Source: Elsinoe ampelina (Eukaryota). From it: DNA of 64,000 nt. This document shows positions 460 to 5,886 of the stretch, one piece after another. Under the pieces are notes generated by a model, which saw nothing but the letters and a program-made list of their open reading frames with translations, ran no database searches and was not told the DNA's origin. The position numbers and the translations under genes are program-made. The stretch is taken from NCBI GenBank assembly GCA_010093995.1, contig ML992503.1, positions 797,234-861,233 of the forward strand, written 5' to 3'. How positions within the stretch are numbered: the first letter of the stretch is position 1; each line of letters begins with the position of its first letter.

Positions 460-1182
460 ATGGCGCCCAAAAACAAATACTCCATCCTCCTCCCGACCTA
501 CAACGAGCGCAAGAACCTCCCCATCATAACCTGGCTCCTGAACAAGACCTTCACCGAACACTCACTCGACTGGGAGCTCATCATCGTCGACGACGCCTCC
601 CCCGACGGCACCCAAGAAGTCGCCAAACAGCTCATCAACGCCTACTCTGCATCAAAAGTAAAACTCCAACCACGAGCCGGCAAACTAGGTCTGGGCACCG
701 CCTACGTTCATGGGCTACAGTACGCAACGGGCAACTATGTCATCATCATGGACGCGGACTTTTCGCATCATCCCAAGTTTATTGCCGAGATGATCAAGGT
801 GCAGGCGGAAGGGAATCATGATATCGTGACGGGGACGAGGTATGCGGGGAATGGGGGCGTGTATGGGTGGGATTTGAAGAGGAAGTTGGTGTCGAGGGGG
901 GCGAATTTGTTCGCGGATACGTTGCTGAGGCCGGGGGTGAGTGATCTTACGGGCAGCTTCCGGTTGTACAAGAAGGAGGTGTTGCAGAAGGTGATTCAGA
1001 GTACGGAGAGTAAGGGGTATACATTTCAAATGGAGATGATGGTTAGGGCGAAGGCGATGGGTTTCAAGGTCGCTGAGGTTCCTATCTCGTTCGTTGACAG
1101 GGTTTACGGGGATTCTAAGCTTGGCTCATCAGAAATCGCTGAATATGCGACGGGGGTGTTGAAGCTCTGGATGAAGGTTTGA
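460..1182 (+). CDS. DPM1: Dolichol-phosphate mannosyltransferase catalytic subunit (GT2)
   Basis: [16 protein letters not shown]..., [41 protein letters not shown]; intronless; ATG at 460 inside ORF 211..1182. Confidence 0.97.
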
Positions 1183-1212
1183 GGTGGTGGTCATCAGGGG
1201 CTGGTATAGGGG

Positions 1213-1275
1213 TTCTGGTAGGCACTTCGGGCGTCGGCGTTCGGGCATCAGCCGGAAGCATTTTGATATCAGGCA
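1213..1275 (+). repeat. Left copy of diverged direct repeat (DPM1 3' UTR core)
   Basis: Ungapped 44/63 match by hand to 5766..5828, including exact 13-mers TTCTGGTAGGCAC and TTGATATCAGGCA. Confidence 0.9.
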
Positions 1276-2154
1276 GCGTGAGATCACACGAAACGAGAAC
1301 CAGTTTACGCCATATTCAATATGGCCCTACGCTATAATTGTCGTCAGGCCATGCATTGAGCAATTGGAGGTCGTGCGAGATGAAGCAAAAATGAGCTCAT
1401 TGCATGTACAGGGGTATCATGTGCAGCCTACTTGAGGCCGCTGAAATCCAGTAAAAGGTACATACTGGCAGATCAGAGCTACAAATCACCATAATGCAAA
1501 AGTTAGGTTTGTCTTCCATTCATCTGCTGTGTTGGCCCGCACGTGATCTGTGTCCAAATTCTGGGGCGCAAACTCCTCCGCGAAACACTTTCAATTTTTG
1601 CCACAACATCGACGAAGGTTTCATTTGTGACTGTGACTCGAGCGGACACAAGCGCTATCTATGCTGTAGGCACGAGTGATGGGCTACAATTCATGCAGAA
1701 ACTCATTGGTGTCTCAGTTCGGTCCCCAAAGACTGTCAGCGAAATGCTGCAGGCGATCATGTTGTCCTGGCAGGAGCAACTGAAGTACCATCGTGCCTGC
1801 CCTCCATGACAGTCCGGTTTTGCAAGCTGTCCTGGGTCATCCTTGATATGCTCCCATCCTTGACAGTCTTTACTAGTGCACATCGTCCCCTCGTCCACCT
1901 TCCTGTCATACGCGCTGAACTACCCATCATTTCAACCTTGTTGAATCGGAGGTGGATTCTCAGACTATCGCGCCTGTACAGCACTGCCGAAACCTCTCGG
2001 TCTGTCCGGTTCAACAGCAGTATCGGCGCAGCAGATTCTGTACAATACTTCGACAATGCCGGTACGTATGCATAGTAAAAGCATTCCAACCCGGTTGAAC
2101 CAGCCTAACAAGCAGCAGACTCTCAATCAATGCTATTGATATGGTCTTTCGACA

Positions 2155-5100
2155 ATGCCGAGAGGCGCGATAGATTACGGAGCACGTCGACTGGCCAAGC
2201 TGAACGCTCAGCAAGCAAGTCTGCCAGCGTCAGAACGCATCATGAACCGAACGGACTGGGACAAGCACATCTCGACGACTGTCGGCGTTCTCACCAGACA
2301 GGCTCACGAAAATGCCAAGCGAGCATTCATCGAGACAGCCACCGCATCGGCAGTGATGATATGCACCACGAATGAAGAAGCCGAAAATTACTTTCGACCC
2401 GGCGGGACACCTTTTACTTGCAAAGTGCTCCGTATTTTCATCGAAGCGTCTGCCCTCAGTCGATCCGGAACCATTGAAGAAGTCCCTTCCCGCATCTCGC
2501 TCAGGAGGCTGCTCACATACCTTTTCGGCGCTGCCAGAAAAGCCGGGAACCCAGTCCAGCCAGCCATACGCACCAATGCTCTGTTGTGGGTTGATAATGA
2601 GCTGATCCGCCGTGGTCTGGCTCATGCTACCCCCCGGGCGAAGCCGACAGCGATACCTCAAGACATTACCACATTCCTGAAGAAGCTGTTTGATGTTCAA
2701 TACATGACGACCTTGGCCTCGACTCGAGATGTGCTTCTTATTGCACTGTTCGTCTGCATTACGGTAGACTGCTCGACAAGGGTCAGCGAGATCATGCGGC
2801 CAAGCATGTCCGCGGAGAATTTGGTGTTGTACAAAAGGGAGCATCCTCAGAAATTTTTCACCTGGTCATGCGTCGAGCTGTTCGCCTTCAAGACCGACAA
2901 TGCTGATACGGTATACCTGCAAGCCAGACTCACATTCAGAGACGTCAAGAACACGACCAGACCCAATCACCAGCACAGCAAGACAATACCATTGCGAAAT
3001 CTGCCCGTTGACATGGCCAGTGAAGACACACTCTTCTGGCTCATTGTACTTGGCCTTATCGACAAGGTGTTTGTTGGTACCGAATCGTGGTCAGATTTCG
3101 ACCGCCTCAAGCCGGGACCCAACGGCCTGAGAGTTCCCATCAAGAGAGCCATGGAGTAAGTTTCTGTACGTCATTTTCAACACATTTGAATCTCCTAGAC
3201 ATTTATAACGTCGATTTCAACACTGTTGAAAAGGCCGTGTGTACTGATGATCTCACCAGGTCTTTCGAACGCCGAACCGGGACATGAAGACTTCAAAGGA
3301 CGATCCGATCAGCAATGAACAGATGGGAAGTCAGAGCATGGTGATTCATCTCAACAACCTCAGTCGGTTTTGTGGCCTGAAGCATGCCATGTTGCCAAAC
3401 GTGCTGAGACGTTCGAGCGCATACATTCTAGCAACCACGACATCGGCTGAAGAACGCCGCGCACGCATGGGGCATAGCACGTCTGACAGCGTCTACTGGT
3501 TCCATTACCGCAACAAAACTTCGACGACCGACGTGCAGGGTCTTCGTCACGGTCTGCAGACGGAGGATGTCTCGCGAATGTCCAGTATATTCCTTGAAGC
3601 TGGAGATCGTACGCCGCCTGATCGTGTTTCCGACGCCGGGATGAAGGCGATCAAGGAGGATGAGGTTGCCGCCAATCTACTGATCGAACAATCCGAAATG
3701 GCGGATCAGCTTGTGACTCAGCATAGATCGCTGGATCAAGCTCAAGTAGCCAGTCCCGACGACCACAAGCGATATGTGCAGGCTCGCAACAAGTACCACA
3801 GACGTGTCTCGTTCCTGACTGAGTCCACCTTCAAGAAAGAATACCGTGCCTTCTTTGCGGATCACGGCGTGGTCGTCCATGAGAGGGATCTTCCGACACT
3901 GGCGATAAGTCCCCAGAGACTCGTTGATTCCAGTGTCGACGGTGTCGATATAGCAGATGACCCCGACCCTGACATTGACTCTCAAGAAGTAGAGGCTGAA
4001 GAGACCAATATTGATGCTGCTATGACTGGACTCGTCACCGCACTGGCTGAAGACGAGACCGATACACACGACGCAGCAACGCTGCCGAACAATCTCGCCA
4101 TTTCGCAGTCGTCAAGGTCCTTCGCTCCTCGCGCGACTGCCAGATACAGTCTCCTCGATCAGGTTCCCGATCTTCTTTACAATCAGAAGGAGAGCACAAC
4201 CCATGCTTCCCTGTCGGCCATCTTCACCGATCTCTTCAACCATCTACATTGCGCCGACAAGTTCTATCCCAACCAAGAACCATTCCCGGGTACCTTCGAA
4301 TGTCGTTTTTGCGGCTATCACTTTCTGGATCTCTTCAGCAGTGCTGATAGGGGCTTCTCCATGGCTCATCGACATGCTGACGACTGCAATGCCGATGTCT
4401 CTGCCGAAGCGTCTCCTCAAGCTCTGCGCGATAAAGACACGAAGGCCAAGACGACCTGCCCTCTTGGAAGACTTGACAAACATCAGAACATGGCCCCGTG
4501 TTGGTTCAAAATCACTGGCTTCCAACCCCTTTTTGATCACGTAAGGAGCTATCACAGAGCCACTGGAGCATCCCCAATCTATACATGCTACAGTCACCAG
4601 CCGCCCCAGATATTTGTCAGTATGGCAGACCTACGCATTCACGCCATCAACGATCACAACGCCGTTTCAACCTTGTTGAAAGGGCACACTCCCCAAGGCA
4701 GCATTGCAAGGGAAGAGACGATATACTTCTGCCACTTCTGTCAGGTTTGGATCGCAAGAGCCGAAGAATTCGAGGAAACCCATCTCTCTGGTCACAGGGA
4801 TGATCTCAAAGATACCTTATCTTCCAACGGCGTTGCAGGACTCTACTATTCTAACCACTGGTGCCAACCCGGCTTCTGCCCATTTTGCGTCTACAATGCC
4901 GGTCTGAGCGTGGTACAACGCATGCACGTATTCACTAACGAACAATACCTCAAGCATGTTGCAGCACACTTGAAGCCAGATCCTACCGGCGACCTGACGT
5001 CACATCCTACCAGTGGCTTGACACCAGATCCTACCAGAAGCTGCTGTCCTGCAAGTCAAGCAACCCCAGAGCTGCTGCCGCGATGCGCTGTGACGTCCCA

Positions 5101-5296
5101 GATGACAGCGATCGAGCTCGCTGAGCACCTCAGGACAGATCACAAGCTGAACGTCAAAGCACCGGCTCCAGCACTGCCTGAAGCATCCTCAGAGCCAGGC
5201 GCACCGGCAAAACGCCGCAAGCAGTCCGAGAGGAAGCCTTTGAATGAGCTCGACGCCAACCGTGGCTCGGAGGAGGCAGCACCGGCAAAGGCGTGA
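2155..5296 (+). CDS. DUF3435-like (Starship captain-type) tyrosine recombinase with C-terminal C2H2-like zinc fingers; two ORFs joined by one intron; possibly carries a premature stop
   Basis: Motifs in catalytic order: CSTRVSE (R), RDVKN (K), VFR after the intron, NVLRRS, RMGH, VYWFHY (Y). Cys/His clusters follow (CRFC..H, CYSH..H, CHFC..H, CPFC..H, C..H). Intron acceptor CAG at 3257-3259 follows a CTGAT branch site. Confidence 0.8.
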
Positions 5297-5383
5297 GGGA
5301 CCGATGTGCCAGAGATGGAGCTGGGCGACTATTCTGCCGATTCCCAGCTTATACCAGGGCCGTCTACACACTCTGATCCTCCA

Positions 5384-5624
5384 TTTCGACAGTGTTGAAA
5401 GATGTCTCGTCAAGCGGTTGTCGTGGATGCTGTGAGCGGTAGCTGGTCCTCATGGTCAAAATCAACAGGGTTGAAATGCATTCTATCAAGCAGGCTTTTT
5501 TCAAGGGGAGGTTGTAATGGGTGGTGCCTTGGTCGGTCAGTTTCAGCATTGTCGAAATGCATTTTACCAGAAAGGTATTCTAGCAAGGAGTAGTGATAAT
5601 AGCTCAAATTCAACTGTGTTGAAC
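5384..5624. repeat. Array of four 17-bp imperfect palindromes (TTTCRRCANTGTYGAAA-like) separated by 50-64 bp spacers
   Basis: 5384 tttcgacagtgttgaaa; 5460 aatcaacagggttgaaa; 5541 tttcagcattgtcgaaa; 5608 attcaactgtgttgaac. Confidence 0.8.
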
Positions 5625-5670
5625 CATTTCCAGCATTTGAGGCAACGACTCATCAAAGCGAAATGCTTAT

Positions 5671-5886
5671 TTTGGTGCCGTCGAAACTACCACATATGTG
5701 CTCACGGTACATGTGCTGTGGTCGAGGATTCGAGGTTGTCACCGATCGGGCCCAGGTGGTCAGGTTTCTGGTAGGCACAGTAAGGTCTAGCGTTGTGGCA
5801 TTAGCTGGTGGTACATTGATATCAGGCATGGATCCTTGAAGTCAAGCGACGAGTCGATTCATTAGGCATTTGTATGGCACTATTCT
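5671..5886 (+). pseudogene. Degenerate copy of DPM1 C-terminal codons and 3' UTR
   Basis: 5671..5733 translates FGAVETTTYVLTVHVLWSRIR versus DPM1 [20 protein letters not shown], followed by the UTR match. Confidence 0.75.

Follow-up and report, generated by a model that had tools for sequence, protein, structure and literature searches.

The window analysed here is a stretch of 64,000 nucleotides (nt) from Elsinoe ampelina (assembly GCA_010093995.1, contig ML992503.1, positions 797,234 to 861,233 of the forward strand). This report deals with a region of it in which the gene for dolichol-phosphate mannosyltransferase subunit 1 (DPM1) is followed by a single recombinase gene and then by a second, decayed copy of the DPM1 3' end. 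The features that define this arrangement, in window positions, are as follows.

460 to 1182, plus strand: DPM1 (P0019), an intron-less open reading frame (ORF) of 240 codons; Pfam Glycos_transf_2 (GT2), E 6e-36.
1111 to 1275, plus strand: left copy of a direct repeat, consisting of the DPM1 codons for residues 217-240 (the last 24), the stop codon and the first 93 nt of the 3' untranslated region (3'UTR); delimited by local alignment, placement null and segment identity.
2155 to 3159, plus strand: recombinase ORF 1, 334 codons; codes for the core-binding domain and the catalytic domain's first half, with the family-invariant R209 and K265 (candidate catalytic residues).
3260 to 5296, plus strand: recombinase ORF 2; codes for the remaining half of the catalytic domain, plus an acidic linker and six Cys/His units that are conserved; Pfam DUF3435.
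5662 to 5828, plus strand: right copy of the direct repeat, a non-coding, decayed copy of the DPM1 tail and proximal 3'UTR, with CGA at the stop position.
6399 to 7268, minus strand: the neighbouring host gene, DUF7730 (P0139), convergent with DPM1; assigned by Pfam.

The duplication of the DPM1 tail is real, and significant similarity reaches back to about position 1111. The best local alignment between 1100-1400 and 5640-5960 joins 1209-1275 to 5762-5828 with a score of 41; the scores of 300 shuffles were 18.2 ± 2.2, with a maximum of 28. Aligned without gaps at an offset of 4553, this block is identical at 46 of 67 positions, and 5000 random placements in the window gave 21.6 ± 2.6. The left copy includes two conserved blocks, 1209-1224 and 1263-1275, and the exact 13-mers at 1212-1224 and 1263-1275 are both present in the right copy. 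The initial annotation of this DNA, made from the sequence alone, had matched 1213-1275 with 5766-5828 by hand (44/63); the match proved significant in the slightly longer form given above, and its two 13-mers were confirmed. A second match described there, 1121-1185 at an offset of 4551, gave the same count of 35/65 (null 20.8 ± 2.7; 5000 placements). This count was reached by 2 of the 5000 placements, one of which, at 65/65, was apparently the segment placed on itself. For the less hand-picked span 1100-1208, 50 of 109 positions are identical (null 33.1 ± 3.7, maximum 48), and none of the 5000 placements reached 50. The two segments are collinear, and their offsets differ by 2 nt. The weaker similarity that had been traced further, to about 1333/5886, did not hold: 1276-1340 gives 24/65 (p 0.18 against the placement null), which is not significant.

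Identity along the repeat is 29% at 1090-1110, approximately 51% at 1111-1182, 62% at 1183-1208, 88% (14/16) at 1209-1224, 50% at 1225-1262 and 100% (13/13) at 1263-1275, and is at background afterwards. The distance between the repeat ends is 4,553 nt. When the right copy is read in register by hand, G222, E225, Y229, V233, L236 and W237 of the DPM1 tail are retained; at the protein level alone its score of 30 is not significant (null 25.6 ± 3.1). The pair occurs only once within the window. A dispersed genomic repeat was ruled out as the origin of the 67-nt block: other CTGGTAG sites have no common context, and blastn of the element matches the element itself alone. Repeat-induced point mutation was ruled out as the source of the divergence (50 transitions and 68 transversions). 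Rfam and tRNA scans found no target RNA gene in 1-8000.

By gene order, the 4.55 kb between DPM1 and the DUF7730 gene is an insertion, because the orthologues of these two genes adjoin in Sphaceloma murrayae by locus tag (CAC42_3234 for DPM1 and CAC42_3233 for the DUF7730 orthologue). In E. fawcettii and Myriangium, the contigs listed for the two orthologues are equal in size. Among 18 recombinase homologues there is no other Elsinoe member, and the next closest is approximately 40% identical. The insertion of a single-gene element at DPM1, as initially proposed, is thus supported by the adjacency of the neighbours in S. murrayae and by a DUF3435 unit that is bracketed by the repeat.

The tail of DPM1 that lies in the left copy is itself anomalous. 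The DPM1 orthologues of other Elsinoe species are 93-98% identical. E. fawcettii, S. murrayae and most Dothideomycetes have the tail GESKLGGDEIVEYAKGVLNLWLKV, and E. ampelina and E. batatas have a common variant tail. Of the 16 differences between the E. ampelina and E. fawcettii proteins, seven are among the final 27 residues (Fisher p 6e-4), as are 7 of the 17 differences from S. murrayae (p 9e-4); between E. fawcettii and Neofusicoccum it is 1 of 30. The first variant codon, 1111-1113, corresponds to the left edge of the repeat, and the seven variant residues (218-238) all fall in the left copy. Among the 120 best DPM1 orthologues, the tail matches those of the three nearest bodies at a median of 22.3/24 positions. 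Similar variant tails (D218, S223, S/Q/N224, A/T227) recur where the closest bodies have the consensus tail. The outlying ones are P0123, P0067, P0119, Aureobasidium, Myriangium and Viridothelium; the body of P0123, for example, is 95.8% identical to that of P0118, and the tails match at 17 of 24 positions. In a quick tree of 119 DPM1 bodies (quick search only; one mis-registered row excluded), the nine variant rows require 7 changes, of which well-supported branches force five or more.

The two long ORFs, listed at 2155..3159 and 3284..5296, form one gene (P0001). By the ORF list and the Pfam scan, this is the single gene between the repeat copies, as had been noted initially. ORF 2 matches DUF3435 (PF11917), the domain of the recombinases of the fungal Starship elements, at 62.9 bits (cut-off 25.8; E 3.4e-17) over profile positions 170-370 of 418. 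ORF 1 had no DUF3435 match in the Pfam scan, and DUF3504 was absent from the matches of the recombinase in it. An AlphaFold2 (AF2) model based on 79 family members has a pLDDT of 84 and a pTM of 0.80; a model from four sequences only (pLDDT 42.8) was discarded. The top Foldseek match of the model is Cre (3crx_A; E 3.3e-5, TM-score on the target 0.58, 412 columns); next come XerH, IntI, Tn1549 Int, Flp and lambda Int. VIA-align gives Z values of 10-12 to integrases, XerH, IntI, Flp and Cre. When the PDB was searched with a sequence profile of the recombinase, nothing relevant was found. Since Foldseek and VIA-align both give integrases, the product of the element is, according to the model, a two-domain Cre-fold tyrosine recombinase of the DUF3435 kind. 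This agrees with the DUF3435-like tyrosine recombinase of the earlier reading, in both the Pfam match and the modelled fold. R209, K265, R376/R377, H398, Y405 and Y409 are invariant in all four full-length family members. ORF 2 holds R376/R377, H398 and Y405/Y409, and these residues, like the two in ORF 1, are candidates for catalytic roles by their position and by known motifs. The six Cys/His units of the C-terminal half are confidently folded in the model, and this half is presumably DNA-binding. It should be mentioned that 4968-5039 in the coding region consists of three tandem 24-nt units, which encode a short proline/threonine-rich repeat absent from homologues.

The stretch was found in two source runs and in four runs of one other study, and those four behave as spliced, RNA-like contigs. 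The spliced contigs are identical to the window across the element. The intervals 1501-1800 and 5701-6000 have no contig cover, and no inference is drawn from these gaps. The features concerned are the following.

1183 to 1336, plus strand: DPM1 3'UTR, from RNA-like contigs that bridge from the coding region (831-1336, X3; 407-1320, X6).
1276 to 1930, no strand assigned: unique stretch from the left repeat to the first palindrome, with no significant match to the right flank.
2062 to 2118, plus strand: recombinase 5'UTR intron of 57 nt, with a GT..AG joint in three of the four runs; it contains palindrome 2.
3156 to 3259, plus strand: recombinase intron 2, with alternative donors at 3156 (104 nt) and 3166 (94 nt), seen in one run each; it contains palindromes 3 and 4.

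The DPM1 contigs extend 61 nt beyond the repeat, into element-side DNA. The unique stretch 1276..1930 is presumed to be element DNA with the recombinase promoter. The recombinase contigs span from palindrome 1 (1931, the first covered base) to 5626, where they end. Removal of the 5'UTR intron leaves an upstream ATG at 2056, which heads an upstream ORF of 8 codons. The 104-nt form of intron 2 shifts the frame. The 94-nt form is in frame but keeps the TAA at 3157-3159. The predicted products of the two forms have 342 and 334 residues. In other words, the recombinase gene is transcribed but is interrupted in both splice forms seen, and the interruption separates the invariant Arg209 and Lys265 from R376/R377, H398 and Tyr409. 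The frame of about 1000 codons is otherwise open. Because of this interruption in both transcript forms, the mobility of the present copy is doubtful, and it is probably no longer mobile.

The deposited model of P0001 differs from these contigs. Its donor at 3133 (GTTCCC) is not seen in them, and its use excises a stretch conserved in homologues. The model also excises 20 codons (VRSYHRATGASPIYTCYSHQ, about 4540-4600) from a Cys/His unit that is conserved in homologues. These odd introns (3133-3259 and about 4540-4600) look like annotation fixes that keep the frame open.

The element also carries an array of palindromes of the form TTCAAC-N3-GTTGAA, located as follows (no strand assigned).

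1931 to 1945: palindrome 1, TTCAAC-CTT-GTTGAA, from a pattern search; start of the recombinase transcript contigs.
2085 to 2099: palindrome 2, inside the 5'UTR intron.
3176 to 3190: palindrome 3, inside intron 2.
3216 to 3230: palindrome 4, inside intron 2.
4666 to 4680: palindrome 5, inside the coding region of ORF 2.
5385 to 5399, 5461 to 5475, 5542 to 5556 and 5609 to 5623: four palindromes past the stop codon, the last at the end of the transcript contigs (5626).

The window has 10 sites of this form, 9 of which are in 1931-5623; counted by strand, there are 20 matches, and 1.5 ± 1.4 are expected. Two relatives of the element have palindromes of their own. In L001, which comes from a metagenome, there are five ATCGAC-N3-GTCGAT sites (0.09 expected), and L002 has three ATCGGT-AGC-NCCGAT sites (at most one mismatch), all within its recombinase unit. 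All three elements have one palindrome at a corresponding place in the intron. To judge from the sequences, the protein of the element most likely binds these palindromes, and they would co-evolve with it. In addition, TTCGACAATGCCG, which resembles a palindrome half-site, is found twice at a spacing of 100 nt (2047-2060 and 2147-2160). The first of these opens the 8-codon upstream ORF just before the 5'UTR intron, and the second holds the recombinase start codon.

The surroundings of the two relatives were compared with those of the E. ampelina element. The recombinase of L002, a relic at 9121-12031, lies by itself, with an SCP2 gene on one side (same strand, stop at 7829) and a gene for a RanBP1/FG nucleoporin on the other. 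A 19-nt pair at 8701/12652 was considered as a flanking repeat of L002 and rejected, being at chance level. The recombinase of L001 also abuts the end of an SCP2 gene, in convergent orientation. These two SCP2 neighbourhoods are leads to an association with gene ends. The SCP2 genes themselves (L001, 2518-2793, minus strand; L002, 7677-7829, plus strand) share approximately 80% of their DNA sequence as far as ...DVMKAT. Beyond it, the final 16 codons are very different, and both proteins have a C-terminal -KL. The first 299 nt of L001 are an inverted copy of the stretch expected before position 346, which may be an artefact of fold-back assembly or may reflect an inversion close to the palindrome in the intron.

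Taken together, this is a real integrative element. It is of the Starship/Crypton kind, and its attachment architecture resembles that of a prophage. We hold with moderate confidence that a 4.55-kb single-gene element was integrated at the 3' end of DPM1 in Campbell fashion and that DPM1 now ends in element-side DNA. The circular form of the element would carry an attachment region that resembles the DPM1 3' end. Its recombination with the host DPM1 would leave the diverged direct repeat 1111-1275 / 5662-5828. DPM1 would then end in DNA from the element side, comprising the distal 3'UTR at least and most probably the last 24 codons as well. The right copy would be the stranded, non-coding other end; we infer the origin of the copies and the position of the crossover. 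That the element replaced the coding tail (the last 24 codons) seems likely. The replacement C-terminus and UTR of the initial annotation stand in part: the anomalous tail inside the repeat and the contigs that run past the repeat speak for them, and the tail of E. batatas and the blocks in the UTR, which are described below, speak against them.

Several observations weigh against this interpretation. The empty state rests on gene order, by locus tags, in one species. E. batatas has the variant tail, yet neither a recombinase nor a DUF7730 orthologue is among its listed matches; therefore, a replacement would have to predate the split of the two species and to have been followed by loss in E. 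batatas. As to which copy matches the orthologues, a question raised with the first description, the left tail has diverged from that of E. fawcettii, as described above. At the seven discriminating codons the right copy is 13 changes from the consensus and 11 from the left copy (hand count), and it is assignable to neither the consensus nor the variant type because it is too decayed. There is also a tension in timing: the right copy is at approximately 50% identity, whereas the recombinase frame of about 1000 codons has a single interruption. The near-perfect blocks 1209-1224 and 1263-1275 sit in the 3'UTR, where the repeat has its right edge; a recombinase core and the crossover would be expected at this place, and the left edge has no identity block. 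The recurrent variant tails could mean co-evolution with a partner protein. Finally, the locus of L002 was searched, and it has no flanking repeat and no second SCP2 tail.

These blocks form the basis of a strong rival, which is serious even though we regard it as the less probable view: the same element would have crossed over in the 3'UTR core (1209-1224 or 1263-1275), and the coding tail of DPM1 would be native. The element would then have replaced the distal UTR and the poly(A) site alone, and the coding-like part of the right copy would be an old relic carried upstream of the attachment core. That the UTR holds the sole near-perfect blocks (14/16 and 13/13), amid identity of about 50%, fits such a crossover, and their size is that of the longest reported Starship repeats (6-16 bp in the literature compared below). 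The identical tail of E. batatas, from which no recombinase is among the homologues found, points in the same direction, and the heavy decay of the right copy would suit a non-coding relic carried for a long time. However, a crossover in the UTR leaves unexplained the burst of 7 substitutions in a near-invariant tail, which coincides with the left edge of the repeat, and it offers no reason for similar variant tails in at least five lineages. Replacement of the coding tail is considered the more likely of the two.

It is improbable that no bounded integration took place and that a copy of the DPM1 3' end, from an older and local duplication, happens to lie beside a resident, decaying DUF3435 gene, such as the stump of a Starship with its cargo deleted. 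The interrupted recombinase would agree with such a history, as would an empty state known from gene order alone, and among the repeats found in the window there are no terminal inverted repeats and no target duplication of the Starship kind. On the other hand, exactly one gene, with its palindrome array, stands between the repeat copies, and by our own estimate neutral decay to about 50% would rarely spare blocks of 13/13 and 14/16. The recombinase of L002 likewise stands alone between two host genes, and in the gene order of S. murrayae nothing lies between the flanking genes. Chance similarity of the two stretches is so improbable that it is taken as refuted: the right copy's protein-level score and the outer extension are both insignificant, but the local score of 41 far exceeds that of the shuffles, the counts of 46/67, 35/65 and 50/109 are at or past the extreme end of the 5000 placements, and the matching segments are collinear to within 2 nt of offset.

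Certain bacterial and phage integrases (e.g. those of the P4 type) target the 3' ends of tRNA or protein genes and carry a replacement end. The E. ampelina element is similar to prophages and integrative and conjugative elements of this kind: the tyrosine recombinase lies beside one attachment site, the repeat corresponds to the 3' end of the target gene, and the gene is functional. It differs from them in its eukaryotic host, in copies that are only 50-70% alike, in a target with a poly(A) site and a 3'UTR, and in having no excisionase or cargo.

For the fungal systems, the comparison was made with PMC11162782, PMC10104507, PMC13465315 and PMC8092012 and with a 2021 Starship preprint. According to these, the direct repeats of Starships are 2-16 bp and those of Cryptons 4-6 bp, and the smallest Starship has 15,020 bp. 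The statements made at the outset, that both kinds of element have short target repeats and that Starships are large and cargo-bearing, agree with these values. The Starship repeats are described as stemming from target homology borne by the element and not from duplication (PMC10104507). Insertions of Starships in 5S rDNA (families Enterprise, Arwing and Voyager) are described as probably disrupting the rRNA. Repeats that contain DUF3435 domains were first annotated as Cryptons; the recombinases of Cryptons are given as polyphyletic and distant from the DUF3435 captains, and those of CryptonA as having a DUF3504 domain.

The element resembles Starships in that the DUF3435 recombinase is first at one end and reads inward, with the kinship based here on the Pfam match. 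The direct repeats match the target, and targeting of a specific gene is known for Starships from 5S rDNA. Kirc of the Enterprise Starships likewise couples DUF3435 to a zinc-finger region. Unlike the reported Starships of at least 15,020 bp, it is 4.55 kb long, with one gene and no cargo. Its repeat is approximately 165 nt, with exact 13-nt blocks inside, as opposed to 2-16 bp. It targets a protein-coding gene at the 3' end and leaves it intact, whereas the 5S insertions are likely disruptive. No terminal inverted repeats were found, and an internal palindrome array is present. With Cryptons it has in common one recombinase gene, a length of a few kb, a lack of terminal inverted repeats and flanking repeats that reflect target homology. 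The differences from Cryptons are the repeat of about 165 nt instead of 4-6 bp and the Pfam domain, DUF3435 instead of the DUF3504 of CryptonA. Literature searches found no cargo-less DUF3435 element and no fungal recombinase element that restores a gene end; such cases may be listed in the tables of insertion sites in PMC11162782 and PMC10104507.

The conserved repeat block contains the word CTGGTAG[GT], which is enriched in the window (25 matches; 4.7 expected). Six copies are in the 570 nt to the right of the element (5768-6337), several of them as TGGTAG(G)TAC, and others are at 1215, 5006 and 5030. An end motif RGGTAG is reported for Enterprise Starships in the same literature. Its resemblance to TTCTGGTAGGCAC of the E. 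ampelina element is a lead only.

A profile search with the family gave 743 clusters at 50% identity, 124 of which were at E <= 1e-30. Among ten clusters that were looked up, five had source names, from Dothideomycetes, Onygenales and Lipomyces, with 1-3 members each. A protein from Lipomyces tetrasporus (P0194), a Saccharomycotina yeast, is a full-length member of 996 residues (E 6e-62 to the profile). Starship recombinases are described, in the texts compared, as limited to filamentous Dikarya, mainly Pezizomycotina. As a tentative and rather doubtful extension, widespread, low-copy, minimal DUF3435 elements of ascomycetes might live at the 3' ends of housekeeping genes, at DPM1 here and near SCP2 in L001 and L002, each with a working replacement tail and palindromes of its own, and the variant DPM1 tails might be fossils of their visits. 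This reading covers at least five lineages, including Aureobasidium, Myriangium and E. ampelina/E. batatas.

A further observation concerns a gene outside the element, at 8645-8895. There the contigs of the other study skip 8646-8693, and in three runs 8781-8894 is replaced by 15 other letters. This is due to either a strain difference or complex splicing.

DPM1 is essential in yeast. If the proposed integration is correct, an element that landed in the end of such a gene and preserved its function by a carried copy would extend the integration strategy of prophages and integrative and conjugative elements to eukaryotic nuclear genomes. The element would be a minimal relative of Starships that has a captain only, and its attachment site would be long and readable, by which target recognition by DUF3435 recombinases would become directly testable. 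If the variant DPM1 tails are footprints of such elements, mobile elements would be a source of abrupt change in conserved protein termini, and this change would be detectable by protein alignments alone. In that case, an essential protein that is otherwise near-invariant would have had its end rewritten by a mobile element more than once.

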